From: a virus
Lineage: Duplodnaviria; Caudoviricetes
Strand: one strand, 5' to 3'
Virus record (IMG/VR): IMGVR_UViG_3300042472_000140
Coordinates: 1 to 61,147 of that record
DNA: 61,147 nt
The position numbers and the translations under genes were made by a program. Below the pieces are notes generated by a model, which saw nothing but the letters and a program-made list of their open reading frames with translations, had not been told where the DNA came from and made no database searches. This document shows, piece by piece, positions 2,680-61,147 of the stretch; the first letter of the stretch is position 1, and every line of letters begins with the position of its first letter.

Positions 2680-3054
2680 CTAGTCTAAAATCTGTCTCGA
2701 AATTGTAGATTCTCCATAATGTTTAATGTAGCTAACCGCATACTGAACTCCATCCATTTCATAGAACCATACAATCTCGTCCTCTAAAATATTTGAGTGC
2801 TCGCCAATACTTGGTCTATTATAGTTTTGTGCGTCCGTCTTTAATAACTCTCTTAAGTACTCGTTAATGAATTTATCGTCCGATGTCATGTACTGAACTC
2901 CCTCGTAACCTTTTTCATCAAGCTCGTACCATTCTCTCTGTGGTTCATCCATAACACTTGGTGTGTATGTAGCTGGATTATATCTTTCAACTTGTGCCGT
3001 CGTAGTGAACATCATTCCGATTGTCATTGCTACTGTTAAAATTACTGTTCTCAT
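2680..3054 (-). CDS. Putative exported protein
   Basis: From ATG 3054: MRTVILTVAMTIGMMFTTTA|Q, a Bacteroidota-style signal peptide followed by Gln. Confidence 0.7.
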   Translation of the reverse strand: MRTVILTVAMTIGMMFTTTAQVERYNPATYTPSVMDEPQREWYELDEKGYEGVQYMTSDDKFINEYLRELLKTDAQNYNRPSIGEHSNILEDEIVWFYEMDGVQYAVSYIKHYGESTISRQILD

Positions 3055-3105
3055 CTTTATTAGTTTTAAGTTTATGCTTCGTTGCATACCTTAAATATAA
3101 GCATA

Positions 3106-3142
3106 AAAAAACCGTCCAATCAGCTTAATGTGATGGACGGTT
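3106..3142 (-). terminator. Intrinsic terminator
   Basis: aaccgtcca/tggacggtt stem with an A run on + (U tract on -). Confidence 0.7.
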
Positions 3143-3164
3143 AATAATTTAGGTTGAACGGTAG

Positions 3165-3632
3165 TTACAACTTCTTTGTTGTCTTTCTAACTGTGTAGTT
3201 AGTATAAGTCTTACCTCCTGATCCACCTTCTACTGGATTACCACTTGCGTCAGTCTGCATTCTAGTCTTTACTCCCTTGTGAGCTTCGTATTGTGCCTTG
3301 CTAACCATCTCAGTCTTACCGCCAACTTCTTTTCCTACAAAGTACTTATAAGGCTCTGAAAATTTCTTCTTAGCAGTGATCTTAATCTCTGGCAATGTAG
3401 TAACCTTAGATGTCTTCTTAGCTGTAACAGTTACCTCAGGTAAAGTCTTTACTGCTGGTTTACTTGCAGTTGTCTTCTTTACTGGTGTAGAAGATACAGA
3501 TTTAGATTGAGCAACAGTCTTCTTAACTGGTGTGTTAATCTTCTTGAATGCTGGAATAGTTTCCATAGTGCTAATCATAGTACCCTTCTTTGGAGGATTA
3601 CCAGCAGCCATGTTTCTTTGTGTAAATGCCAT
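3165..3632 (-). CDS. Basic Lys/Thr-rich protein with two LPE(V/I)x(V/I)TA motifs
   Basis: ORF track; TLPEVTVTAKK and TLPEIKITAKK; TACCTTTG promoter just upstream. Confidence 0.75.
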   Translation of the reverse strand: MAFTQRNMAAGNPPKKGTMISTMETIPAFKKINTPVKKTVAQSKSVSSTPVKKTTASKPAVKTLPEVTVTAKKTSKVTTLPEIKITAKKKFSEPYKYFVGKEVGGKTEMVSKAQYEAHKGVKTRMQTDASGNPVEGGSGGKTYTNYTVRKTTKKL

Positions 3633-10181: not shown

Positions 10182-10210
10182 GTAAGCTCCGACGGTAGGT
10201 TAAACCGTCA

Positions 10211-10286
10211 GCTAGTAGCTCAGTGGGGAGAGCGTGTTGTTTATAGGTTAGGCAACGAATGACGGGCGTTCAATTCGTCCCTAGCA
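10211..10286 (+). tRNA. tRNA-like RNA with short acceptor stem and aberrant anticodon arm (no anticodon assignable)
   Basis: D arm GCTC/GAGC; T arm GGGCG-TTCAATT-CGTCC; 5-bp acceptor GCTAG/CTAGC; 8-bp anticodon stem with 5-nt loop; no CCA. Confidence 0.55.
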
Positions 10287-10340
10287 AAAAGTCTTCGTCA
10301 AGACTAAAGCCATCGTGTATTGTGCACGATGGCTATAATT

Positions 10341-10460
10341 GGTTAGGTAGAGCAGTTGGTAGCTCGATTGGTGAGCAGTAAAAAGTATGGAGTAATTACC
10401 TGAGGATATACATTCAGTCTTGCCGATAGGTCGCATGTTCGAGTCATGCCCTAGCCACCA
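10341..10460 (+). tRNA. tRNA-like RNA (initiator-like body) with a 51-nt segment in place of the 7-nt anticodon loop
   Basis: Acceptor GGTTAGG/CCTAGCC plus ACCA; D arm GAGC-AGTTGGTA-GCTC; T arm GCATG-TTCGAGT-CATGC; anticodon stem ATTGG/CCGAT enclosing 10372-10422. Confidence 0.8.
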
Positions 10461-10489
10461 CATGTTTCATGTGTGTTTGGTTAATGTTG

Positions 10490-10522
10490 ATTGGAGGGGT
10501 GTGGTGTCCCTCCAATTATTTT
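10490..10522 (+). terminator. Intrinsic terminator after the tRNA-like cluster
   Basis: ATTGGAGGG/CCCTCCAAT stem followed by TATTTT. Confidence 0.65.
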
Positions 10523-10545
10523 AATGATTGTGAAACATAAATGAC

Positions 10546-10599
10546 TTATAACGTTTTGCAACTTGGCGCATTTTCAGTTGCGCTAAGGTGTGGTTATGC
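10546..10599. repeat. attC-like site 1
   Basis: TTATAAC...CTTGGCGCA/TGCGCTAAG...GTTATGC. Confidence 0.75.
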
Positions 10600-10623
10600 T
10601 TAGGTTTACATAAATAAAATAAT

Positions 10624-10794
10624 ATGACGAAGGATAAATTTATCGGTATGTATTTAGAACGTGAAATGAAAGACCACGGATTGCCTTATGGTTTGGCATA
10701 CTATAACTTACTTGAAGAAAAAACAGAAAAAGCAGAAAGGGCTTGGACAAGATTTTGCAAAAGATACGGAACTGCCAAAACTAAAGGTAAGTAA
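10624..10794 (+). CDS. Cassette 1 ORF, hypothetical (56 aa)
   Basis: Manual translation MTKDKFIGMYLEREMKDHGLPYG...; stop lies inside the arm preceding site 2. Confidence 0.7.
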   Translation: MTKDKFIGMYLEREMKDHGLPYGLAYYNLLEEKTEKAERAWTRFCKRYGTAKTKGK

Positions 10795-10800
10795 ACTTGA

Positions 10801-10896
10801 GCATAACGGTTGGGTATATGTGTTGTACGCCTAACCACTAACTTTAAAATTAAGTACGACACTTCATTGGCGTATAACATATATACCTTGTTATAA
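10801..10896. repeat. attC-like site 2
   Basis: GCATAAC...GGTATATGTGTTGTACGCC/GGCGTATAACATATATACC (19 bp, 2 G-T)...GTTATAA. Confidence 0.8.
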
Positions 10897-10917
10897 GCCG
10901 TTTTAAATTAAATAATT

Positions 10918-11073
10918 ATGGCAAAGAAAATGCAAAATTTACCAGAAGGAATGATACCTGATAGGGATAATGTCGTTTACTACGATACAGAGAAAGGACA
11001 GTTTTATATTATTAAGTGGGAAGATAGTGGGAACAATGACATCCCTATCAGACATTACATACCGAAGCCTTAA
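10918..11073 (+). CDS. Cassette 2 ORF, hypothetical (51 aa)
   Basis: Manual translation MAKKMQNLPEGMIPDRDNVVYYD...; stop abuts site 3. Confidence 0.7.
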   Translation: MAKKMQNLPEGMIPDRDNVVYYDTEKGQFYIIKWEDSGNNDIPIRHYIPKP

Positions 11074-11078
11074 ATGAC

Positions 11079-11177
11079 TTATAACGTTTTGCGGCTTTGT
11101 GTCTGTTTGCCCCTTGCACAATGCTTCAATTTACCACAAATGTTAATGAAGCAAATAGCACAAAACCGCTGTTAGCA
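11079..11177. repeat. attC-like site 3
   Basis: TTATAAC...GCGGCTTTGTGTCTGTTTGC/GCAAATAGCACAAAACCGC...GTTAGCA, with a bulged base. Confidence 0.8.
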
Positions 11178-11220
11178 GATGGCACGGTTTATTTAGTACA
11201 AATTTTAAATTGAAATACAA

Positions 11221-11784
11221 ATGAAAAAAATTAGCACATTATTTAAGAAAGACCCACAAGATTTGGGCAGAGTAATCAATGAAGTGAACCCTGAAAATGA
11301 GTGGGGGTTTACAGATGGAATACCAACACGAAAGTATGATGGAACTGCAACTGCTATAATTGATGGCGAACTTTACAAAAGATACGATGTGAAGAAAGGC
11401 AGACAAGTTCCTGATGGTGCAATACCTTGTCAAGAAGCTGATTTAATAACAGGACATCATCCACATTGGTTAAAATGTAGCCACGATAAAAACGAGGATA
11501 AATACTTTTTTGAAGGATTTAATTCACTTGCTGAACTTGGCACGGTTGAAGATGGTACTTATGAATTGATTGGTGAAAAAGTACAAGGCAACCCCGAAAA
11601 AATAGAAGGACATCATTTGGTAAAACACGGAGCAAAAGTTTTGCAAGGATTGATTAACCCAATGACATTTGAAAACTTAAAGGAATACTTGGAGAAAGTA
11701 GATATTGAGGGAATTGTATTTCATCATAAGTCCTATGGTCATATGTGTAAATTACGAAAATCTGATTTTGGAATACGGAGGTAG
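11221..11784 (+). CDS. Cassette 3 ORF: RNA-ligase-like nucleotidyltransferase (DUF5565/Rlig1-like)
   Basis: Ligase motifs I KYDG, III YELIG, IV EGIVF, V CKLR. Confidence 0.7.
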   Translation: MKKISTLFKKDPQDLGRVINEVNPENEWGFTDGIPTRKYDGTATAIIDGELYKRYDVKKGRQVPDGAIPCQEADLITGHHPHWLKCSHDKNEDKYFFEGFNSLAELGTVEDGTYELIGEKVQGNPEKIEGHHLVKHGAKVLQGLINPMTFENLKEYLEKVDIEGIVFHHKSYGHMCKLRKSDFGIRR

Positions 11785-11832
11785 TGCTTTCTGCTAACTA
11801 CTTGCTAACAGAACATTCAATAACACGAAACT

Positions 11833-12229: not shown

Positions 12230-12736
12230 ATGGACTACGTGAGAGTCGATCTAAGACCACTTGTTATAGTGGCACTACTGTTTGTATGTCTGACGGTCTT
12301 ACTATCTCTCAGACCTACCGAGGTAAAGACTAAGGTACGGTACGTAGAATCCGAGATGATTGTGAAGATTCAGGGCATCGAGTTTAGTCCTGAGAACTTG
12401 CGCAAGTACATTAAGTTGTGTGGTATAAAGTTTTCCGATATTGTGTATGCCCAGGCTGTGCTTGAGAGTGGAAACTTTAGGTCAACTAGGTTCCTAGAGA
12501 GCAACAATCTTTTCGGAATGAAGAGGGCGATGTCACGACCTACAACGGCACAGACCGAGTATGGTGGACACGGACGTTACGACAGCTGGTTGCTCAGCGT
12601 CCAAGATTATGCTCTATTTCAGAGTGCGTTCCTTAGGGATATAAAGACTGAGAAGGAATACCTAAAGTACTTGTCTGACAACTACGCAGAGGATCCAGAT
12701 TATATTAACAAGGTAATTAAAATAAGTAAGAGATGA
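12230..12736 (+). CDS. Membrane-anchored glucosaminidase (GH73/FlgJ-like peptidoglycan hydrolase)
   Basis: N-terminal TM; AQAVLESG, NNLFGMK and YAEDPDY motifs. Confidence 0.85.
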   Translation: MDYVRVDLRPLVIVALLFVCLTVLLSLRPTEVKTKVRYVESEMIVKIQGIEFSPENLRKYIKLCGIKFSDIVYAQAVLESGNFRSTRFLESNNLFGMKRAMSRPTTAQTEYGGHGRYDSWLLSVQDYALFQSAFLRDIKTEKEYLKYLSDNYAEDPDYINKVIKISKR

Positions 12737-23614: not shown

Positions 23615-23655
23615 AATGTCCAGTTAATTTCAAACTTAACTGGACATTCTTTTTT
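23615..23655. terminator. Terminator at the convergence of the two genome arms
   Basis: Perfect 13-bp stem AATGTCCAGTTAA/TTAACTGGACATT followed by a T run. Confidence 0.8.
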
Positions 23656-26600
23656 ACTTCCTCTTTGAATACTTCTTATCGTATATGTATAAGGCTTGCT
23701 TTGATAACTTCATCTTAGCTTTACCCATAACTTCAGATAGTATTTTCTTTTCTTCACTATCAAGTTCTGATCCGTATCTGTTATAAAGTCTTAACGCTTG
23801 AACTTCAGGAGTTTCTTCATACAGTATATCAAGTATCGACCTATCGATGTTCATGTTCTTGATGTATGCATAATATTTTTTAGCGTACTTCTCCTGGTCT
23901 TTTTTCTCAAAGTTAGTTTTTATTAAATCTACTAACTCACCATTTGACAACTCCTTCCCGTCCTTATATATATTCTTGATGGTGTTGTACACCTTCTGTT
24001 CTTTGTTATATATATCTGTCTCGATAATCATCTCTTGATTTTCTATCTTGTCCTCTTCCTTATATCTGATGTTATCTTTGTTAGTAGTTCTCTTTAACTT
24101 CCTAGCTGAAGCATCAAATACATTACTAAAGGCATCTGAGAATTCAGCTCCGTATCCATCCTTATTAAAGAATCCATTCACAGATGCATAAAATATAGAT
24201 ATCATAGGGTTAGTATTCTCACTTGTAACTATCTTCTCTATAGCCGCCTTAGTTCTAATAGGAGACAACCCTAGACTAGGTGCTATCTTTTTATATATCT
24301 CCTCTACCTTATCGTCGTACATTCCCTCCGCACTAGCTGCTATCTTTTTATCTCTAGGTTCTCTAAAGATTTTCTCCCCAGTAAATGAATCCCAGTTAAA
24401 ACTATACGTTAGAAGTCCAGATATAAGTGGATTTCTAGATGCAATATCAGACGGTGAGAATGGAGTTGATGCCGATATAGATTTATTTATCACCTCTTGG
24501 TCTACATCATATTTAATTCCTGCCTCTGATAGTAAGTACTTGTACGTGAACTGCTCTGCCACAGTAGACATTACAGATAGAACTGGTAATTTTTTTACTC
24601 TGTAGTACTCGTACTCTCCATCCTTATCCTTCTTACCAGTAAATATTATATGGTATGTTGCCTTCTCGTAATCAGATAATGAATCTAACACCTCTAATAC
24701 TTTCTTCTTCTCTTCTTCGTCATCTCCAACTGATCTCATAAGTGCAGCTAAAGACAGTGCCGCTACTGATCCAGCCATTACTGCCGCTTGAACTAAGCTA
24801 GAAGTAAATCCTAGTGGGTTATTTTTAGCGTACTCAAGAGGTCTTCTAAATCCTTGCATGGATGCATTTAAGTATGGCATCACATTATCAGCCGTCTTAA
24901 CCCATGTCCCTCCCTGATTGAAGTCCATTGTCTCTCTAGCATTCCTTGTTGCCTCGTACATTATATCATCTAGTTCCTTAGCGTCAGGGTCTCTTCCGTT
25001 TTCTTTTTTGAATTTAGATATCTCGTCACCTTTTACTTTATCATAAACAGCAAGTCTAAACGCAAGTTCAGATTTTTCTCCTAGGTAGGACATGATGTTT
25101 CCGTAGCCAACTAATACCTTCTGACTGATATTTAGTATCTTATTTTTAGGAGACAGTGACTTCAATGCTCTAAGACCGTCGTTAGATAGAAAGTCCATAG
25201 CTCCACCATGCTCAACGTATTCGTTGTATATTACATTCTTTCTATTCTTAGTTGCTACTCCCTTCAAGAACTTTCTAACAAAGTCATAGCTTAACTGAGC
25301 ACCTCCAACTAGCTTGAACTTTGAGTACACATCAGAGAAGAATAATATGTTCTGGAAATCTACTGCTGTGTTACCAATAATGAACAACGGGTTACCTCCA
25401 GTCGCAAAGAACCTTAGTATTTTAGCTCCAGTTAATGTACCAATTAAATTAAGTGCCTGGTTTGAAGACTTAATATCTAACAGCTGTGTAGCATATTCAT
25501 CTTTAACTACTAGGTCCGTCTTCACTCCATTCTTAAAGAATGACACTATGCTGTACCCTATAGGCACATTATTTTGGTTGTACTTATACTGAATAGACCC
25601 AGTAGATGTCTGCTTTACTATAGGGTTATCTATTATGAATTCAGACATAGCGTCTCTCTGTTCTTGAGTTGCTCCATCAATAGCGTCACTGAACTCATTT
25701 AGCATCTTATTCTCGAACGCTCGTCCTTCAACAGACATAACGTTCAACATAAGGAGCCACTTAGAGTCAAATATTATAGCGTTCTCGTTACTGTCAGTAA
25801 GAGCCATTATATCTTTCTTACTAACTCCTAACTTACTAGCCTCTCTATCTACAGTAGCTGGGTCTAAGTTATCTCCAATGATGTACTTAATAGTTCTAAT
25901 AGGAGAGTACTCTATATCTCTCAGGTTTATGTAAGTCTCTTCGTTTATTCTACCTGACTCGTACAGCTTCTTTAAGTTTTCTGAGAACACACCAAAATAT
26001 TTAGTAGCTCTTTCGCTTAAGTCGTTGAATTTCTTTTCACCTATCTTATTCTTTATAGCATCTAAATCTTTTAAAGCCTTCACCTCAGAGTAACCGTCCA
26101 TACCAGTGTATGGCTCTGCTCCTTGCTTGGCTCTACTCTCATTAATAGCTACCATACGTCTTGCGTATATGATATCATCAAGTGTATCTAAATCATTCTT
26201 TTTCAAATCTTTATAGATATCAGCCTCAGCATTTTTAAATCTGTAGTTAGCAAAACCACTAGCTCCAGCCTTGTTGACTAATAAGTTGTAAGCTCTTATT
26301 GACTCCTTGCTTCCGATGCCTTTAATTAATCTCTTAATGTCGGACTGTCTATCAATAAATTTATTTCTTATTGCTCTAATTCTATCTCTTATAGTCAGCT
26401 TCTTCTGTCTAGCCATAAGTTCTTTCTGACTAGCTTCCCTTATCTTACTCACAGTGACGTCACCAGTGTCTGGCTCCATTGCGTCGTTGATATTCTTGTC
26501 AGAGTATCCCTGGTCCTTTAAGTACTGACGGATAGCAGCGTCAGAGAACCCTTGGTCCTTAGTCAACTTAACTATGTCGTTGATGGTCTTAGGCTTCTGC

Positions 26601-29600
26601 TTACGTGGAGATATACTCTCTTCGATACCAGTAACCTCTTCAGCTATCTGCTTACGTGGTGTGATCTGCTTGGATATGTTCTTAGGGAACCTCTTGAAGT
26701 TTATGCCTCCACCTACTCCGTCACCTTTGAACGTGATCATGTCACCATCGATACTAGTTATCTTACCCTTAGACCCGTACACCTCAACGTCATCTCCTAC
26801 CTTGTAAGTTTCTTCAGCTATAGGCTTCATAGATACATTGTCCTTAGAAGCCTCAAGCGACATTGTAGTCTGTGCTCTGAGTTCGTTATTTCTCCATCTA
26901 GCAACGACCATGTCATACCCGTTCTCGTTAGCGACCTGAGTTATAAATGCCAACTGGTAGTTAGGGCTGAATGATTGTGAAGGACGTGCAACCTCGAATC
27001 TTTTCTTAGCCTCGTCATAGAAGTTTTCTGGATCACTATTAAAGTCGTACACCTTACCGTTAGGAACAAGGACAGTGTGTAGTACGTTACCAACACCTGG
27101 CTCAACCTGGTTGTCCATCGTGTAGTACATCGCAAGTCCTCCAACAGCAGATAAGGCTCCACCTTCTTCCTTCCCAGTGATGATATTCTCTCCAGTTCCA
27201 GGCTTAATTACATCTCTATTGTCGTTTGAGTAGTGATGGAACACGAAGTTTCCGCTCTTATCTTCAGTCAACTTGTTTGACAGCTCTGGAGCAAGTTGCT
27301 TTCTAGAAGAAATTTCTTTTATCCCTATGCCATAAGGAGCAACAACTTGAGATTGCTCAGATCGAGACATATCATCACGATATTTATCCTTTATTTCAGA
27401 AGGCATTATATCATAAGAATTAATTTTCTTATCTGGAACACCTACAACAGAACCTAATATATCTGTTTCATATGTAGAATGTTTAGATTTTTCACCTAAT
27501 TTATCAGCCTTTAAAACTAACATAATATCTCCCATCTCAAAATTATTATCTTGATAGAATCCATCACGTAAATCATTTGGATCAACAAATGCATTATATT
27601 TTTCTAATACTTTTTTTGCTAGAGTATTTTTAGTTTGTTGTTCATTTATAGCTATAATAAAATTCTTTCTATCAGCCCCCATAAATAGGTCTTCATAAGA
27701 ATTATATTTTTCTAATATAGATTTTATCTTAGATGTTGGTTTAGATTCTAGTAATTCTTTTTTAAAGTTATTAAATTCAATAGCTCCTTCAATTCTTCTT
27801 CTAATTAAATTAGTAACAGTCTTGTTGAATAATTTTGATCTCTGAGGGGATCCACTTATAATAAATATATAATCAGATTTAGCTATATTATTATCTAAAG
27901 TTTTCTTTTTAGCACCAGAAGCCCATATTACATTATTACTTCTATTCTCAGGATCTAACGCAAACGATGGTCCAGCATCTAAGAAATGTTCTCCATTTAA
28001 TACTGAATCAAAATAATTTCCTCTTCCTAATTGATCAGCAACCCAAAACCAAACCTTTTGTTTTTTAGATGAAATATCAGATATTAATGAATCAATATCA
28101 ATAATATCTTCTTTCGTTACAAAAGTTAATTTTTGATCTTTACTTACTTTTACTTGTTTTCTTGGTTCAGTAGATTCAACAATATTAGTTGTAACACCAG
28201 TTATTGACATCATATTAATATCAGCCTCACTAATCACCTTACCCTTAGCTACCTTTCTAGCTATAGTGTTGAGCATGTCGTAGGTCTCGTTTCTGTTGAA
28301 CGGATCTAATTTAGATATCTTAGCCAACTTATCTATCCATCTGAAGATAGTATCCTTAACAGATGTAGAAAATGAATTATAGTTCTCAGCTAATACACCT
28401 ACTAGTTCAGCTAGTTTCTCTTCGTTCTGAATATTCTCATCGTAGTTAGATATAAAGTCATTCAATTTTTTATTTACATCTACATCAACTTTAAGCCATA
28501 TAGCTTCAATCATTCGTTTAGTTATATCAGCAGCATTTTTATCTGTCTTAACCTTATTTATTAAGATAGCATGGAATACCTCGTGAGCTACAGTTCTATT
28601 GTTAGCTGACGTTCCATTAATATGTATGGTATTCGTTTTTGCATTAAACTCACCATTTGATGATTGCTTCAGTCCTTCTTCTTTTGTAGCAGCTCTATAT
28701 GACTCATCTGTATCATGAACTATAAACTTAGTGCCTGGTATAACCTTAGATACTGCCTTAGCTGCTCTAGCTACTGCCTTAGATATTTTCTTATTAACTA
28801 TAGTATACGCCTTCTGGTCAATCTCTTGATCTGTTCCAGACAATAACTGTCCGATAGCCTCAACCTCTTGCTCTACGGTAGGACCTTCTTTTGTAGCTGG
28901 TAACAAAGGAGTTATCAGCTTGTCATACTTGTCGTATATCTCGTTGTACTTCGTTAGGTCTTCAGGAGTCATTAGGGTCTTATCTACTTCACCGTTAACC
29001 TTGTAGTCTTCTATGTTAGGTATAACGTCAGATAACTCCGCTTGTTCTTCTGCTCTTAAGGTTGCTACTTGGTCTTGTTCAGTAGGTTGAACTGCTGATG
29101 CCTTATCTTGTAAATTAAACAATTCTGACTGTGCAACATCAAATTTATCTGCCTTAGAACGAAAGTCTGGATTAGCCATAACTTCCTCTTCAGTTAAACC
29201 TTGATCTTCCAACTCAGCTTGCAGGATGGTTTTTTCATCCCAAAGAGAATCAACTTCTGCCTGCTTAGCGTCTACTTCTTCTTGCTGTACTTCGCTTGTG
29301 ACAACGCTATCGCCACGATCTGCTTCTGGCTGCGTGGTTTCCCGTTTGCCCCCTTCGCTGATCCCGACTTCTTGTTGTCCTTCACCAGTTCTCTGATATT
29401 CGCTTGTACTGACTTCTTGGACGTTGCTTTCTTTAGTGGCATCTTCTGATATCTTTGTTAGTTCGTTATTTATCTCGGCAACTCTTGCCTTCTGTGATGC
29501 GACAAGGTTTTCATCCTTGCCAGCAATTTCTTTTTCTAGTTTATTTCTTTCTAATGTAAGAGTTAATGCACTCTTTAAATTCTCGCCAGTTATATTATCA

Positions 29601-32356
29601 GGAATTTTATTAAACAGACCTTGCACATCATTCATAGCATCTAACTGGTTCTGAGCTTCTGACTTTGTTATTTTTCCAGAAAGCATTCCAGTCTTTAACT
29701 TTGCAATAAAAATTTTCTTAATCTCTGAATCTTCTGCAATTGATTTTAGAAAATCTACATCTTTAGCATTATATAGGCTTATGTCTCCATTTCTAATCTT
29801 CTCATATGACGTACCAACAGATGTCATAACCATACCTCCTATAGCTTCAGCTGCTGCGTCTTCTAATACCATAGCTGCACCTTCACTAAAAGAGTCAGGA
29901 GTATCAAAGTATTCTCCTTGAGATAAGTCTGTTGCAAGTTTCCCGTCAGTCTTGTCTTTGTATATGTTGTATAGACCCTTCAGTCCAATGTCTAATACAA
30001 GAGACTGAGTTGCACCAGTCTCTGCCTCTGCTAGTGTACCTCCTATTACTTTTAATCCAAACTTAGCTATATTTGATTTTATTTCTTTTTCAAGAACACT
30101 CTCAAATACTTTTTTGGTTGTATTTCCACCTATCTTACCAGCTACTGAAAGTAATGATTTAGCTATTAATGATTTAGCTAATGGGTTCTTTGACATCATT
30201 GTAGTTACACCAATATTCTCTAAGATACCCATACCTATAGCATAAGGAACAGTAATTATAGATCTATCCTTCACAGATGTAGTTTCAAAGTCAGGATCAT
30301 TAAGCATCTCATCCTCAATAGAACTATAAGCCTGAGTCCCTAATGCTGATATTCTAGCAGCAGCTCCACCTGGAACAAGCATAGCTGGTAATGATTCAGC
30401 AACTCCAGCTAATGCTTTCTCAAAGAAACCACGATCAGCTGATTTTCTATATTCTTCTGTTGTACTTGATGTTCCTAATGTTTCAATTAATGATGATTTA
30501 ACAACTTCTTTAACTTGTTTTTGTCTTTTATTAGCAAGATAATTTATAGATTCTTCTTTACTGTATTTTTTATCTTTTAAATAATTTTTTATTTGAGGGT
30601 CTAGCATTTCATAATCAAGATCTCCTGAATAAGATGCAGCTAATCCAACTGGAAATTCTATTATTTTAGATACTCCACTAACAGTAGAGTTAAGCATGTT
30701 ACCCCAAAACCCACCAATTTTTTCTTTTGTCAATAAGTATTTTCCAGCTACAGTCTCTAATTTTTTCATTTCAGACACTACTGCATTACCACTTTTCTTT
30801 ATTTCTAAATTTTTATTATCTATATCTTCAGCTCGCTGTATAAATTCAGATGACATTGCGTCGTACTGTTCTTTATCAATTTGTCCAGAGTTTACTTTTT
30901 GATTAAATTCATTCAGATCTTTTTGATATTGTGCAGTTTCTGTTTCAATCTTTTTATATGAATTGCTTACATCATTTAACTGTATGTTATAGTTATTAGT
31001 TTGATCTTGTATAAAGTTATTAGATAAATAAGAATCTATTTGTTGTTTAATAACTTTCTTTTGATCATCAGTTTTTGCTTGCTTTAATGAGTAGTAAAGT
31101 TTATCAATTTGATCTGTTCTATCTTTTAATTGTTTAGAAACATCTTTTTTATATATTTTATATATATCAGAATTATAAAAATTACTTATTTCATCTTTAG
31201 TTCTATTTATTTCACTTTGATTTCCAGTATTACCAGCTGTATTTCTATTGCGTCTTAAATCATTTAAATAAATGTCAATTTCCTTCTTTTTACTGTAAAA
31301 GTCTAATGATTTAAAATCATCTACATATTGATCAGACTTTAAATATTCATTTAATTTTTTATTTCCTTCTGCAATTGCTGAGTTTCTTGCCTTATTTATT
31401 GAATCAGATAATGATCCATCTGGAAGTGGTATATCAGATATTTTTTGTCTTAATTCTTTTATATTATTATTTTTTGTAGATTTATCTGATTTATTTAAAT
31501 CCAAGAATGTTCTCAGTTTTAAAGCCTCTGTTGGGTTAGATTCATCTAAACCTACCTCCATAGTTTTACCATTCTTAGCGGTAACAGTAACGTAGTCTGT
31601 ACCCATGCCAGATTGCTCAAATGAGAACCCTAAGTTACCGTACTTGTTTTGTAAATATGGAACTACAGTCTCCTCTGTATTTGATACTAACTTAGAATTT
31701 ATATCAGCAAATTTAGGAGTATTATCTTCTACAACATTTTGTAGTACTGTAGGTATTTTTACTTTTTTCTTAAATTGATTATTTAGAGCAGTTATAGCCG
31801 TAGCGTCAGTTAACGTGGTCCACTTTGTAGCAGTAGGCTGCATTCGCTCCCAGTTACCATTATATACTCTGTACTTATTAGTTTCTTTACCAGGGACTCC
31901 AACAAAAACTTCTTCTATATCTGATGCTCCAGCATTCTGATTGAAGTGCTTATTAAGTGCTGCTACTCTAGCTGGATCAGTTATATTTATTTTTACACTG
32001 ATAGGAGCTGATACTGGTTTATTTCCGACTACTAATCCAGTTCCTGCATCTTCCTTCCATATTGGTGTACCAGTAGATTCATCTAATATATACTTCTTAT
32101 CTCCCTTCCCAGGATACCCAGTGAATACTTGTTGTTTAGCCTTTCCTCCAGACGATACCAAAGGCTTTTGAGCCGTCTTTGGCTTTGATGTAGCCAATGT
32201 AGATTCCAGTAGATCTGTAACGGGCGAAAATATAACACCCTTCTTCTTTGGAGCAGGCGTAGCTTCTTTTTTTTTTACTGGTTCTAATATATCACTTGGT
32301 TTAGGAAGAGATGATTTATTCAATATATCACCTGGTTTTGGTAAGTTATTTGGCAT
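23654..32356 (-). CDS. Giant virion/ejection-type polyvalent protein (2900 aa) with zincin motif and LPD38-like C-terminus
   Basis: HEVFH...EEKLAE; C-terminal ARETMDF-x-QG...PYLNASMQG region; last gene of the virion module. Confidence 0.75.
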   Translation of the reverse strand: MPNNLPKPGDILNKSSLPKPSDILEPVKKKEATPAPKKKGVIFSPVTDLLESTLATSKPKTAQKPLVSSGGKAKQQVFTGYPGKGDKKYILDESTGTPIWKEDAGTGLVVGNKPVSAPISVKINITDPARVAALNKHFNQNAGASDIEEVFVGVPGKETNKYRVYNGNWERMQPTATKWTTLTDATAITALNNQFKKKVKIPTVLQNVVEDNTPKFADINSKLVSNTEETVVPYLQNKYGNLGFSFEQSGMGTDYVTVTAKNGKTMEVGLDESNPTEALKLRTFLDLNKSDKSTKNNNIKELRQKISDIPLPDGSLSDSINKARNSAIAEGNKKLNEYLKSDQYVDDFKSLDFYSKKKEIDIYLNDLRRNRNTAGNTGNQSEINRTKDEISNFYNSDIYKIYKKDVSKQLKDRTDQIDKLYYSLKQAKTDDQKKVIKQQIDSYLSNNFIQDQTNNYNIQLNDVSNSYKKIETETAQYQKDLNEFNQKVNSGQIDKEQYDAMSSEFIQRAEDIDNKNLEIKKSGNAVVSEMKKLETVAGKYLLTKEKIGGFWGNMLNSTVSGVSKIIEFPVGLAASYSGDLDYEMLDPQIKNYLKDKKYSKEESINYLANKRQKQVKEVVKSSLIETLGTSSTTEEYRKSADRGFFEKALAGVAESLPAMLVPGGAAARISALGTQAYSSIEDEMLNDPDFETTSVKDRSIITVPYAIGMGILENIGVTTMMSKNPLAKSLIAKSLLSVAGKIGGNTTKKVFESVLEKEIKSNIAKFGLKVIGGTLAEAETGATQSLVLDIGLKGLYNIYKDKTDGKLATDLSQGEYFDTPDSFSEGAAMVLEDAAAEAIGGMVMTSVGTSYEKIRNGDISLYNAKDVDFLKSIAEDSEIKKIFIAKLKTGMLSGKITKSEAQNQLDAMNDVQGLFNKIPDNITGENLKSALTLTLERNKLEKEIAGKDENLVASQKARVAEINNELTKISEDATKESNVQEVSTSEYQRTGEGQQEVGISEGGKRETTQPEADRGDSVVTSEVQQEEVDAKQAEVDSLWDEKTILQAELEDQGLTEEEVMANPDFRSKADKFDVAQSELFNLQDKASAVQPTEQDQVATLRAEEQAELSDVIPNIEDYKVNGEVDKTLMTPEDLTKYNEIYDKYDKLITPLLPATKEGPTVEQEVEAIGQLLSGTDQEIDQKAYTIVNKKISKAVARAAKAVSKVIPGTKFIVHDTDESYRAATKEEGLKQSSNGEFNAKTNTIHINGTSANNRTVAHEVFHAILINKVKTDKNAADITKRMIEAIWLKVDVDVNKKLNDFISNYDENIQNEEKLAELVGVLAENYNSFSTSVKDTIFRWIDKLAKISKLDPFNRNETYDMLNTIARKVAKGKVISEADINMMSITGVTTNIVESTEPRKQVKVSKDQKLTFVTKEDIIDIDSLISDISSKKQKVWFWVADQLGRGNYFDSVLNGEHFLDAGPSFALDPENRSNNVIWASGAKKKTLDNNIAKSDYIFIISGSPQRSKLFNKTVTNLIRRRIEGAIEFNNFKKELLESKPTSKIKSILEKYNSYEDLFMGADRKNFIIAINEQQTKNTLAKKVLEKYNAFVDPNDLRDGFYQDNNFEMGDIMLVLKADKLGEKSKHSTYETDILGSVVGVPDKKINSYDIMPSEIKDKYRDDMSRSEQSQVVAPYGIGIKEISSRKQLAPELSNKLTEDKSGNFVFHHYSNDNRDVIKPGTGENIITGKEEGGALSAVGGLAMYYTMDNQVEPGVGNVLHTVLVPNGKVYDFNSDPENFYDEAKKRFEVARPSQSFSPNYQLAFITQVANENGYDMVVARWRNNELRAQTTMSLEASKDNVSMKPIAEETYKVGDDVEVYGSKGKITSIDGDMITFKGDGVGGGINFKRFPKNISKQITPRKQIAEEVTGIEESISPRKQKPKTINDIVKLTKDQGFSDAAIRQYLKDQGYSDKNINDAMEPDTGDVTVSKIREASQKELMARQKKLTIRDRIRAIRNKFIDRQSDIKRLIKGIGSKESIRAYNLLVNKAGASGFANYRFKNAEADIYKDLKKNDLDTLDDIIYARRMVAINESRAKQGAEPYTGMDGYSEVKALKDLDAIKNKIGEKKFNDLSERATKYFGVFSENLKKLYESGRINEETYINLRDIEYSPIRTIKYIIGDNLDPATVDREASKLGVSKKDIMALTDSNENAIIFDSKWLLMLNVMSVEGRAFENKMLNEFSDAIDGATQEQRDAMSEFIIDNPIVKQTSTGSIQYKYNQNNVPIGYSIVSFFKNGVKTDLVVKDEYATQLLDIKSSNQALNLIGTLTGAKILRFFATGGNPLFIIGNTAVDFQNILFFSDVYSKFKLVGGAQLSYDFVRKFLKGVATKNRKNVIYNEYVEHGGAMDFLSNDGLRALKSLSPKNKILNISQKVLVGYGNIMSYLGEKSELAFRLAVYDKVKGDEISKFKKENGRDPDAKELDDIMYEATRNARETMDFNQGGTWVKTADNVMPYLNASMQGFRRPLEYAKNNPLGFTSSLVQAAVMAGSVAALSLAALMRSVGDDEEEKKKVLEVLDSLSDYEKATYHIIFTGKKDKDGEYEYYRVKKLPVLSVMSTVAEQFTYKYLLSEAGIKYDVDQEVINKSISASTPFSPSDIASRNPLISGLLTYSFNWDSFTGEKIFREPRDKKIAASAEGMYDDKVEEIYKKIAPSLGLSPIRTKAAIEKIVTSENTNPMISIFYASVNGFFNKDGYGAEFSDAFSNVFDASARKLKRTTNKDNIRYKEEDKIENQEMIIETDIYNKEQKVYNTIKNIYKDGKELSNGELVDLIKTNFEKKDQEKYAKKYYAYIKNMNIDRSILDILYEETPEVQALRLYNRYGSELDSEEKKILSEVMGKAKMKLSKQALYIYDKKYSKRK

Positions 32357-52424: not shown

Positions 52425-52707
52425 TCTTTTTTATCTTACCCTCAGCAAAGCCATTAGCTCCAAGCGTTACAACTGGTATCACTCCAGCATCTAGCTTATT
52501 CCTCTCTGACTCTATCTTCTCTAGCATGTATATTGCATCCTCGTAGGCTAGCCTCTTAGCAGAAGCAGCGTTCTTCATCTTGTCAGCCGTTAGGTCTTCA
52601 TCACTAGATGTAATTATGGGCATCTCAAGAACCTTGATTAACTCATCGACAGCCTTCTCAGCAGCGACTAGTACCCTATTCTTCTTGTCCTTTAAATCTT
52701 CAGACAT
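52414..52707 (-). CDS. Probable terminase small subunit
   Basis: Helical 97-aa protein overlapping the terL start. Confidence 0.55.
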   Translation of the reverse strand: MSEDLKDKKNRVLVAAEKAVDELIKVLEMPIITSSDEDLTADKMKNAASAKRLAYEDAIYMLEKIESERNKLDAGVIPVVTLGANGFAEGKIKKNGR

Positions 52708-53255
52708 ATGTTATTTAGTTTTACTCTGTATAACTTATCTCCATCTATCTTGAACTCGTACTCTGATCCTGGCTTGAACGATATCTCGTCTCCAACGTCT
52801 ACGGTGTCTACCTCTTCAGGTTTAAACTCTACCGTTCCGTATAAGTTCTTCTCCACGTAGTGGTTAAGTACGGTGGTCGAGTCGTCGTTCTGTTGTGGCT
52901 TAATAAAGCAGTAAGGATACGTAGCCATCCAGCCAGCACCTTCCTTCTTGTATAAATAAATCTGTTCGTAGTCTAGTATGTAGATGTCGTCCTTTATATA
53001 ACTCCATCCGCTAGTCTCGTTACCGTTCATGTTGTAGTAAAGTCTGAACGTGTTGTGATGCACGACCACTATATCTTCTTTAGATATAGGTCCCTTGTAC
53101 CAGTCTGGAGTAGATATAACAGTGGCTAGTCTATTGGTTACTGTATGGTCCTCAATAGAGGACGATATAATAAACTCAACGTCACCAAATTTTCTTATGT
53201 TGTCATACCTAACTCCATTATATGGTCTTATAATGAAGTAGTTAGGTGATGTCAT
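52692..53255 (-). CDS. GroES-like (tandem Cpn10-fold) protein
   Basis: Two GroES-like halves: FIIRP...ATVISTP...EDIVVV and FIKP...GTV...VGDEISF...EFKIDG-x-KLYRV. Confidence 0.55.
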   Translation of the reverse strand: MTSPNYFIIRPYNGVRYDNIRKFGDVEFIISSSIEDHTVTNRLATVISTPDWYKGPISKEDIVVVHHNTFRLYYNMNGNETSGWSYIKDDIYILDYEQIYLYKKEGAGWMATYPYCFIKPQQNDDSTTVLNHYVEKNLYGTVEFKPEEVDTVDVGDEISFKPGSEYEFKIDGDKLYRVKLNNICLKI

Positions 53256-60265: not shown

Positions 60266-60491
60266 TTCGGTAGGTCTTGTCGTCGATTGTTATGTGGTGA
60301 CCCTGAGCCTTGTCGAACATTATGTTGACACCAACGACAACATACTTGACCTCTGGACCGACGTGTATAACCAAGCCCTCGTGGTAGCGCATCTTGGATG
60401 CGTTGTCAGCTGTTGTTATCAAACCAGTCATGGACTCCTTGTGGTCCACGACTGATTCTTCAATTATAATGTAGTTACTTAGAACCCTCAT
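60231..60491 (-). CDS. groES: Co-chaperonin GroES
   Basis: 86 aa; GLVIHVG, VG-x-x-I-x-F, I-x-IDD-x-x-Y-x-IIREQDV; overlaps the groEL stop. Confidence 0.85.
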   Translation of the reverse strand: MRVLSNYIIIEESVVDHKESMTGLITTADNASKMRYHEGLVIHVGPEVKYVVVGVNIMFDKAQGHHITIDDKTYRIIREQDVAVVL

Positions 60492-61147
60492 CGTCTCGAA
60501 TGTTTGTTATTATTGCGTTAGTACTTAGTATCGTTGTTGCTACAGACACTGCGTTCTTTAGCGCAGACCGAGTAACCTTCGTAGGGTCAATAACTCCCAT
60601 CTTCATCATGTCTCCGAACTTGTCGTTCTTCACGTCGTACCCGTAGTACCTAGACTTGTTGTTACATATCTCCACACCGATCTCGATGTGGTTCTTGCCA
60701 GCGTTCTTAAGGATCCGTCTGAACGGCTCCTCGATGGCGTACAGCATTATGTCTGCCGCCTTGTCATAAGACTCGGACTTGCCTAGCTCTATTACAGAGC
60801 CAGCCCTCAGTAAAGCCATGCCTCCTCCAGGAAGTACGCCCTCCTCGATGGCAGCCTTTACAGCCAACACAGCGTCGTCCGTTCTATCTTTTAATTCCTT
60901 CTGCTCGATGTCAGAGTTAGCACCGACGTAGATTACGCCCACGCCTCCAGAGATGTTGGCTAGACGCTCTTTAGTGAACTCGATGTCCTCTTGGTCAATC
61001 TTGAGGTCTAAACTATCTGTGAGGGCTTTAAAATGCGTGTCAAGGTTCTCGTTAACTTCTTCTGACGGTATGATGATCGTCTTTGACTGTCCTACGATCA
61101 CCTTTGACGCACGTCCCAACCCAGCAAAGTCCACGTTGGCAACGTTG
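60475..61147 (-). CDS. groEL: Chaperonin GroEL, C-terminal part (joined to 1-1038)
   Basis: ERLANISGG, EEGVLPGGG and GVIDPTKVTRSAL motifs. Confidence 0.95.
   Translation of the reverse strand, partial: NVANVDFAGLGRASKVIVGQSKTIIIPSEEVNENLDTHFKALTDSLDLKIDQEDIEFTKERLANISGGVGVIYVGANSDIEQKELKDRTDDAVLAVKAAIEEGVLPGGGMALLRAGSVIELGKSESYDKAADIMLYAIEEPFRRILKNAGKNHIEIGVEICNNKSRYYGYDVKNDKFGDMMKMGVIDPTKVTRSALKNAVSVATTILSTNAIITNIRDDEGSK
61021..61147. repeat. Terminal direct repeat, copy 2
   Basis: Identical to 1-127. Confidence 0.97.

Follow-up and report, generated by a model that had tools for sequence, protein, structure and literature searches.

The window analysed in this study is a complete virus record of IMG/VR (IMGVR_UViG_3300042472_000140; 61,147 bp, with direct terminal repeats), and our subject is its positions 10538–11798, where three single-gene units, each opening with an imperfect hairpin, follow one another. 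We consider it probable that this region is a three-unit array belonging to an integron-like cassette system, one found widely among phages and chromosomes of Bacteroidota and relying on a trans-acting recombinase. Three observations carry this reading. Within a unit, the start box pairs with the end box in a 15-bp covarying helix, and this pairing lies far beyond chance; units are gained, lost and relocated precisely at an (A)TAAC core between near-identical phages; and the same unit is found with different neighbours. The recombinase supplied in trans and the circular intermediate are the parts of the reading that we infer.

Organization of the array in the window

The features of the array are as follows, with ↓ marking a unit junction and H1–H3 the hairpins.

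10538..10552, plus strand: orphan end-type box TAAATGACTTATAAC at the left array edge, with no gene before it; identical to the end box of cassette 2
within 10538..10552, plus strand: orphan box TAAC, the junction preceding unit 1; the box lies just after a hairpin at 10488–10518
10553..10807, plus strand: unit 1, with H1 interior, start box 10593–10607, ORF1 10624–10794, and end box 10793–10807 ending in TAAC
10808..11085, plus strand: unit 2, with H2 interior, start box 10890–10904, ORF2 10918–11073, and end box 11071–11085 ending in TAAC
11086..11798, plus strand: unit 3, with H3 interior, start box 11171–11185, ORF3 11221–11784, and end box 11784–11798 ending in TAAC
TAAC 10549–10552 to GTTA 10593–10596: hairpin H1, 48 nt
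TAAC 10804–10807 to GTTA 10890–10893: hairpin H2, 90 nt
TAAC 11082–11085 to GTTA 11171–11174: hairpin H3, 93 nt
11795..11832, plus strand: array end TAAC↓TACTTGCTAACAGAAC, hairpin-less, with the junction between 11798 and 11799 (TAAC↓TACTTGC)

The stop codon of each open reading frame (ORF) lies at, or inside the 5′ edge of, its end box. A first-pass annotation, made from the sequence alone, had described the hairpins, ORFs and pairings of this region, and all of these are present within 3 nt of where it had placed them. It had also claimed that the start of each cassette pairs with its own end, and repeat finding returns all three pairings: 10593–10612 with 10788–10807 in unit 1 (20 nt, 85%; 15/15 within the boxes, including wobbles), 10890–10903 with 11072–11085 in unit 2 (14 nt, 86%), and 11171–11185 with 11784–11798 in unit 3 (15 nt, 87%). 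All three units obey the 15-bp start/end box rule set out in the next section. That an end-type box without a gene precedes H1 follows from a 27-nt direct repeat found in the window, 10538–10564 and 11071–11097 (93% identity). No further copies were found in the window beyond the three units.

Folded as single-stranded DNA, as the first-pass annotation had proposed, H1, H2 and H3 reach −10.2, −17.3 and −17.6 kcal/mol, better than shuffled sequences (z = −2.3, −3.5 and −2.1, respectively). Flanked by their own unit's boxes instead of their in-array flanks, the same hairpins reach −17.0, −20.3 and −27.8 kcal/mol. After the third end box there is no fold beyond chance (z = −0.33), and the array end at 11795–11832 is a putative primary insertion site, attI-like in character. 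No Rfam family matches the window hairpins, the sole Rfam match in the window being a tRNA; Rfam has no attC family. H1–H3 were not called as terminator-like and have no T-run behind them. Promoter-like sites at the hairpins were not above shuffles by the sigma-70 consensus, which may not fit Bacteroidota.

ORF1 and ORF2 encode 56 and 51 aa, and neither has a Pfam or PHROG match. ORF3 encodes a 187-aa RNA ligase of the ATP-dependent kind, which matches phrog_14301 over residues 1–187 of 187 (3e-67) and the Pfam family RLIG1 at 27.1 bits (cut-off 25). A KxDG motif was spotted by eye in its translation.

Start and end boxes of a unit form a covarying helix

The stretch 11069–11215, comprising H3 and its leader, is 83–85% identical to an intergenic stretch in 37 cultured, otherwise unrelated Flavobacterium phages, and the homology starts at TAAC. 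Small ORFs annotated over H3 in these phages were rejected as coding because indels change the frame between copies. A 22-nt core of H3 occurs in 74 stretches of IMG/VR contigs (4–191 kb) and in 19 stretches of genome contigs, nearly all of them short contigs of metagenome-assembled Bacteroidota genomes.

Box pairing was scored in the 67 non-redundant H3 copies from other contigs that had enough downstream sequence. A TAAC-ended partner, pairing at ≥13/16 positions, lies a few hundred nucleotides downstream of 46 of these, against a mean of 1.3 and a maximum of 4 pairings when start boxes were swapped between loci in 200 rounds. Pooling the loci gave 159 distinct cassettes, many of them from related phages and thus not independent events. 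They are 464 nt long at the median, and 86% of a cassette is taken up by its longest ORF on the same strand.

The first-pass annotation had put the pairing arms at about twice the length of the integron R box, and across the 159 cassettes the helix is indeed 15 bp long. The search itself set positions 1–4 (GTTA/TAAC). Positions 5–9 and 12–15 are Watson–Crick paired in 132–158 of the 159 cassettes; they stay paired while their bases vary, and therefore covary. Position 10 is paired in 117/159, and position 11 is a G·T pair in 150/159. In 42 cassettes there are 13 nt between the end of the stop codon and the junction, and in 36 the TAA of TAAC itself serves as the stop.

On the gene-sense strand a unit reads, in order, G and an imperfect hairpin of ~45–125 nt, a start box (GTTA NNN GC WG NNNN), a short leader, one ORF and an end box (NNNN TT GC NNN TAAC), and units are joined head to tail at TAAC↓. 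The 69 distinct inter-cassette hairpins measure 48–131 nt including the cores. At the foot, TAAC is followed by G and 4–5 unpaired nt, a 4-bp stem, a C·A mismatch and a long stem; the tip is variable and A-rich, and 1–2 unpaired nt precede GTTA. The stems covary between hairpin types. The fourth core base also covaries, as CAAC/GTTG, in one unit of Polaribacter phage P12002L.

Some further features of the boxes and hairpins were seen. The box types that recur across genes are limited, with the triplets TAA, TAC and TAG making up 43/67. Two different cassettes of lillamy9-1 (L109, gene-sense 1545–1864 and 3036–3276) have the same start box, GTTATAACTCGTTTT, and the same end box, AAAATGAGTTATAAC. 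An "empty" junction, TAAC-T-GTTA, without a hairpin interior lies at ~2030–2060 of L008. Several hairpins of ~118 nt have an ATG in the A-rich tip, and an ORF seems to open within the hairpin and to continue across the GTTA box.

Units move between near-identical phages at the TAAC core

The early regions of Flavobacterium phages are arrays of at least 10 units in ~5.5 kb. The genomes of phages lillamy9-1 and lillamy9-3, both of 38268 bp, were compared over 7.5 kb. A 439-nt unit (G, hairpin, GTTA box, 288-nt ORF, box, TAAC) occupies an internal junction in lillamy9-1 and the array end in lillamy9-3, and the stretches of 1426 and 3605 nt beside it are 100% identical. The unit is bounded by TAAC↓ in both places, and the empty sites are exact. 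The junctions share a microhomology of ATAAC(G), which places the exchange point no more finely than the shared ATAAC.

Other pairs differ in the same manner. Compared with snusmum9-1, snusmum6-1 has a unit of hairpin and methylase inserted exactly at TAAC↓TACAATATT, and snusmum9-1 has an extra short unit elsewhere. Phages lillamy9-1 and snork6-2 are distinguished by one 342-nt unit, placed at the array end, and by a block of two units, and both differences have exact TAAC↓ boundaries. New units in these phages sit exactly at the hairpin-less end TAAC↓TACAATATT, and a similar end without a hairpin, TAAC↓TACCTACTAACAGGAAC, is present in L022. The same end flank, TAAC↓TAC, is abutted by four different last units. 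The units that have moved or been inserted carry their hairpin 5′ of the ORF.

Homology breakpoints fall within −7 to +2 of TAAC↓ in 37 of 69 cases, a zone holding ~6% of positions; the 69 pairwise breakpoints come from six arrays and re-sample a handful of events. Most of the others fall outside the array or 11–20 nt deeper, in the initial bases that adjacent hairpins have in common.

The units of the window occur in other contexts

A 44-kb IMG/VR contig (L047) matches window positions 11082–11798, that is from TAAC to TAAC, at 80%. A second match (L088) covers 11168–11798 at 93%; there the RNA-ligase gene stands behind a different, 55-nt hairpin and another hairpin follows it. Unit 2 occurs with H2 in L257 (94.6% over 10809–11087), with neither unit 1 nor unit 3 adjoining. 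A gene is thus usually, though not always, co-inherited with its hairpin interior. Contigs from lake-water metagenomes that belong to other genomes diverge from the window at 10888, 11085, 11070–11082 and 11174–11176, and one of them, of 8109 nt, carries just 10888–11085; these are assembled contigs, and branch points at repeats are therefore expected among them. The first-pass annotation had staked its cassette interpretation on variable neighbours and on boundaries at the TAAC/GTTA boxes, and both were found, in units 2 and 3 here and in the differences between the Flavobacterium phages.

ORF1 has a single weak relative in IMG/VR. Homologues of ORF2 without boxes are present in L258 and L259, and the RNA ligase of Cellulophaga phage phi10:1 (L263) is not in a cassette, so that the cargo genes also exist as ordinary phage genes. 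Such pairs of box-less and cassette copies (L258, L259; L263) might show the conversion of a gene to a cassette.

Chromosomal arrays in Bacteroidota

The proposal that this is a Bacteroidota cassette system agrees with the distribution of its copies, which lie in both phages and chromosomes of this phylum. A general motif, TAACG-N5-GGCTTTGCGAAG, matches at least 140 stretches of genome contigs, mostly from Chitinophagaceae, Sphingobacteriaceae, Flavobacteriales and other Bacteroidota. Among 136 parsed loci, many of only 622 nt, 44 have at least one cassette by the strict rule and 19 have at least three.

The largest example described here is in a Flavobacterium genome (G037), whose contig 1 carries 27 copies of the motif on one strand at 2,458,469–2,513,106; a reversed control pattern gave 0. 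The array spans ~55–65 kb (about 2,446,900–2,513,100; loci L113–L115 and L252–L254), has near-identical 120-nt hairpins and follows the start/end box rule throughout. Its cargo includes a GmrSD-type restriction enzyme and a methylase. With G and T required at position 11, the ORF lies opposite the TAACG strand in 32/34 cassettes of this array and on the same strand in 138/142 phage cassettes. From these counts, the chromosomal array has the polarity of an integron (gene, then site) and the phage units are reversed. The asymmetry of the hairpin and the G·T pair keep their orientation whatever the strand of the gene, which argues for a constraint on DNA and not on mRNA.

Cassette cargo is rich in DNA methyltransferases

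From the cassettes we took 114 representative ORFs of at least 60 aa, of which the 71 longest were scanned against Pfam.

DNA methyltransferases: 35/71 (28 N6_N4, 3 C5, 3 MT-A70, 1 Dam)
Mom-family: 2/71
Thg1-like: 1/71
RNA ligase: 1/71
YopX: 1/71
zinc-finger protein: 1/71
no Pfam match: 30/71

The cargo in phages is thus mainly DNA-modification genes, and the arrays are therefore exchangeable sets of anti-restriction genes. The window carries an RNA ligase and two small ORFs without a family.

Search for a recombinase

The first-pass annotation had described the phage as lacking an integrase, and this holds: none was found among the 51 window ORFs scanned against PHROGs, and a six-frame search of the window for the tyrosine-recombinase family PF00589 gave 0 matches at E≤0.1. 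It had further suggested looking for a linked tyrosine recombinase. Such an enzyme does adjoin two chromosomal arrays, but the link does not extend to the phages, where a tyrosine recombinase was rejected as partner: it is present in 1/36 carriers and does not track arrays. L264 holds the lone phage integrase close to an array, and this enzyme bears no relation to the recombinase family at the chromosomal arrays. The phrog_704 exonuclease was also rejected; it is array-adjacent in some phages and present in the window, but occurs in 2/36 carriers and shows no tracking.

A set of 73 ORFs (≥230 aa) from 20 array loci includes two tyrosine recombinases, which share 54% identity. Each is found immediately past the TAAC↓ end of its array, in the same relative orientation. 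Their best scores, 203–207 bits, are against the XerA/integron-integrase model (cut-off 220); the integron-integrase model gives 183–184 bits (cut-off 265) in two segments that leave out positions 178–240 of the model, presumably the IntI-specific insert. Homologues with 44–48% identity are present in 4/5 array genomes, and not beside the arrays where positions are comparable. A host enzyme of this family is plausibly available to the phages; nothing ties the family to the sites. The homologues in Flavobacteriaceae are very often within the first ~1 kb of a contig, which suggests that they adjoin an assembly-breaking repeat; they may belong to a multi-copy element.

Proposed mechanism and alternatives

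In the mechanism that we propose, a unit would leave as a circle. In the circle, the end box, TAAC, the hairpin, GTTA and the start box would form a single long hairpin on the gene-sense strand, mimicking the core site of a tyrosine recombinase with a spacer of 5–6 unpaired nt between an outer and an inner arm. An Xer/IntI-type tyrosine recombinase would then exchange strands within TAAC, at the counterpart of AA↓C on the recombining attC strand of integrons, and the circle would be inserted at another TAAC↓, by preference at the hairpin-less array end. Because almost no carrier phage encodes such an enzyme, it would be supplied by the host or a co-resident element.

Several results weigh against this proposal. 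As to the enzyme, PF00589 is found in 1/36 carrier phage records and in 1/21 of those at least 90% complete; the 25 flank ORFs of the 55-kb Flavobacterium array include no tyrosine recombinase, and the genome that holds this array has no integron integrase (TIGR02249) above 265 bits. The array-adjacent family is present in 51/61 sampled Flavobacteriaceae genomes and the array motif in 1/121, so that the presence of the enzyme does not track arrays. As to movement, the 2043-nt flank past the array end is 98.4% identical between lillamy9-1 and lillamy9-3, and its 33 mismatches mean that homologous exchange with a third phage gave at least part of the difference between the two. The RNA-ligase gene stands behind H3 in two contexts and behind the 55-nt hairpin in a third. 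The top strand is the more stable in 25/47 hairpins, so that hairpin stability favours neither strand. No joints occur in the contigs matched to the array, and no circle junction was observed in this material, which consists of assembled contigs only. Finally, attC1 of phage P12002L gave no verified recombinants with the integron integrase IntI1 in the available text of Qi 2023 (PMC9892861).

A process without any recombinase would account for part of these data. In such a copy-choice process the hairpin and box stem would fold in a single-stranded template and bring two TAAC repeats together, and the polymerase would slip across the fold, losing a unit, or switch between co-infecting genomes, gaining one, in a way that may be likened to the structure-stimulated precise excision of inverted-repeat transposons. 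The junctions, which share only the 5–7 nt of ATAAC(G), agree with it, as do the absence of a tyrosine recombinase from 35/36 carrier phages, a fold that puts both TAAC copies at one junction, and the phages' own genes for an exonuclease and a single-strand DNA-binding protein. However, it accounts less well for precise insertion between unrelated flanks, at an end without a hairpin, than for loss, and it gives no reason for the conservation of the G·T at position 11, the 5-nt/1-nt spacers and the C·A mismatch. Recombinase genes at two chromosomal array ends, and the action of IntI1 at the array-end junction of P12002L reported in the available text of Qi 2023 (PMC9892861), also speak against it, and we regard it as unlikely.

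Less likely again is shuffling of the kind described for the PeSL cassettes of phages, in which the hairpins would be conserved regulatory stem-loops (terminator or promoter) and ordinary homologous recombination between them would swap the genes. H3 and ~45 nt downstream are indeed 83–85% identical across otherwise unrelated phages, the early region, where the hairpins separate small accessory genes, is plastic, and shuffling and mini-circles by recombination between such motifs are described in the accessible portion of Arbiol 2010 (PMC2839356). Yet (A)TAAC is all that units share with the hairpin-less end or the unrelated hairpins to which they are joined; covariation of start and end boxes is not predicted; H1–H3, lacking T-runs, are not called as terminators; and the chromosomal arrays keep the sites though their genes are on the other strand. 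We therefore consider this process improbable. An RNA-level element, in which the boxes would pair in a polycistronic transcript as processing or stabilising stems (a double-strand RNase site, for example) and modularity would be a by-product, is very improbable, for although boxes, G·T (G·U) and ORF share a strand in 138/142 phage cassettes and RNA duplexes of a unit's own boxes reach −9.8 to −20.6 kcal/mol versus −1.9 to −3.7 with neighbours' boxes, the G·T-bearing strand is antisense to 32/34 ORFs in the chromosomal array, the precise relocation of units is unexplained, and Rfam has no family for the hairpins.

If site-specific exchange within TAAC is the mechanism, lytic phages infecting a major phylum of aquatic and gut bacteria have a dedicated means of swapping single accessory genes, chiefly restriction-defeating DNA methylases, across lineages that are otherwise unrelated in sequence. 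It would also explain why Baltic Flavobacterium phage isolates differ in methylase content and plating efficiency, as given in the consulted parts of Nilsson 2020 (PMC7077304). Canonical integrons are rare in Bacteroidetes according to the available text of the IntegronFinder 2 preprint; the mechanism would extend integron-type capture to this phylum and suggests that the IntI-specific enzyme is dispensable. Cassette-type gene exchange itself is here shown in lytic phages without a recombinase. The system is directly testable, since cultured phage–host pairs with naturally rearranged arrays exist.

The phage that carries the array

The gene set of the window is that of a tailed, lytic-type lake phage, with terminase, portal, virion proteins, primase/helicase, exonuclease, single-strand DNA-binding protein and endolysins. 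No usable array-less close relative was found; the nearest contig (L080) begins only at window position 12386. The phage's own array may have been inherited rather than actively captured.

A tRNA-Pro gene and then the terminator-like hairpin at 10488–10518 precede the array. This tRNA gene (10208–10289, 82 nt) is the only one called in the window; it has the unusual anticodon AGG at position 38, and its Rfam score of 30.4 is barely over the gathering score of 29. The sequence at 10340–10460 is tRNA-like, with an acceptor-like 5′ end, a T-arm-like GGTCGCATGTTCGAGTCATGCC, a CCACCA end and ~50 extra nt at the place of the anticodon arm; it was called by neither ARAGORN nor Rfam and may be an intron-bearing or decayed tRNA. 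Elsewhere in the window are a 2900-aa ORF at 23654–32356 (minus strand) with no PHROG match at 1e-5, a GroEL-like gene at 60475–61134 and a GroES-like gene at 52692–53255.

Comparison with known systems

Integron attC sites have the consensus RYYYAAC/GTTRRRY. The first-pass annotation had likened the units to integron cassettes, and the likeness stands as far as mobile single-gene units and boxes that are continuous only when the unit is closed are concerned; what does not stand is the order within the unit, which is a hairpin with its downstream gene. As in integrons and in clusters of attC sites lacking integrases (CALINs), the units are single-gene and promoter-poor and form head-to-tail arrays. 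The sites are imperfect hairpins of ~50–130 nt (57–141 nt for attC) with ...AAC and GTT... feet, the boxes are fully complementary in the closed unit only, the crossover lies in the AAC/GTT core, and the sites within an array are hybrid. A putative preferred insertion site at one array end and a cargo of defence and anti-defence genes are further integron features, and very large sedentary arrays with near-identical sites recall chromosomal integrons. The Flavobacterium chromosomal array even has its site 3′ of the ORF (32/34 cassettes), as attC sites do. The phage units differ in this respect, their hairpin lying 5′ of their own gene on the coding strand, and in having the putative insertion end downstream of the genes. 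The paired box is 15 bp here with a fixed G·T, against 7 bp in integrons; neither the phages nor the Flavobacterium genome that holds the 55-kb array yielded an integron integrase; and the recombinases beside two arrays fall below the integron-integrase cut-offs and are without the IntI-specific insert.

PeSL cassettes of T4-type phages were reportedly described by Comeau in 2014. In the accessible portion of Arbiol 2010 (PMC2839356), small accessory ORFs of lytic phages likewise lie between PeSL stem-loops, in plastic parts of the genome, units are inserted, deleted and replaced one by one between close relatives, and mini-circles are proposed as vectors. Unlike the present system, however, PeSL exchange is by homology between promoter-terminator motifs, as set out in the same portion of that paper; here a core of 4–7 nt lies beside non-homologous sequence. 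Moreover, our sites differ in sequence and are also present in bacterial chromosomes, and the terminal boxes of each unit covary. A homology mechanism of the PeSL kind does not fit because the junctions here share only 4–7 nt.

In the pdif modules of Acinetobacter plasmids, genes lie between inverted recombinase half-sites, have no recombinase of their own and use the Xer enzymes of the host, and CTX-phi shows that a folded single-strand hairpin can be an Xer substrate. The end of the box, ...ATAA(C), bears some resemblance to the inner end of the dif arms. There is no dif-like 28-bp duplex site here and hairpins of 45–125 nt part the arms. A role for Xer is putative.

A partial precedent is Qi 2023 (PMC9892861), which in its available text reports 17 CALINs from a screen of 10,705 phage genomes, among them one with two methylases in the virulent Polaribacter phage P12002L. 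Two sites of P12002L, attC1 and attC2, had been called there with IntegronFinder and HattCI. IntI1 recombined attC2 of this phage with attI1 in E. coli, at G↓TTAGGC (PMC9892861, same text). We find the same cassette architecture in the P12002L genome. Its attC1 is the inter-cassette hairpin upstream of gp35, and its attC2, taken on the opposite strand, is the junction at the array end, where G↓TTAGGC corresponds to the TAA↓C in the end box of the final unit. Neither the available text of Qi 2023 nor the one supplement file consulted mentions Flavobacterium phages, and this paper is the only prior description of these arrays that a search outside subscription journals returned. We advance tentatively, as a less secure proposal than the array reading itself, that Bacteroidota may have their own analogue of the integron, with 15-bp covarying boxes, a crossover in TAAC and an Xer-like recombinase without the IntI domain, which virulent phages lacking a recombinase would borrow in trans, with inverted polarity, to trade methyltransferase genes among unrelated lineages.

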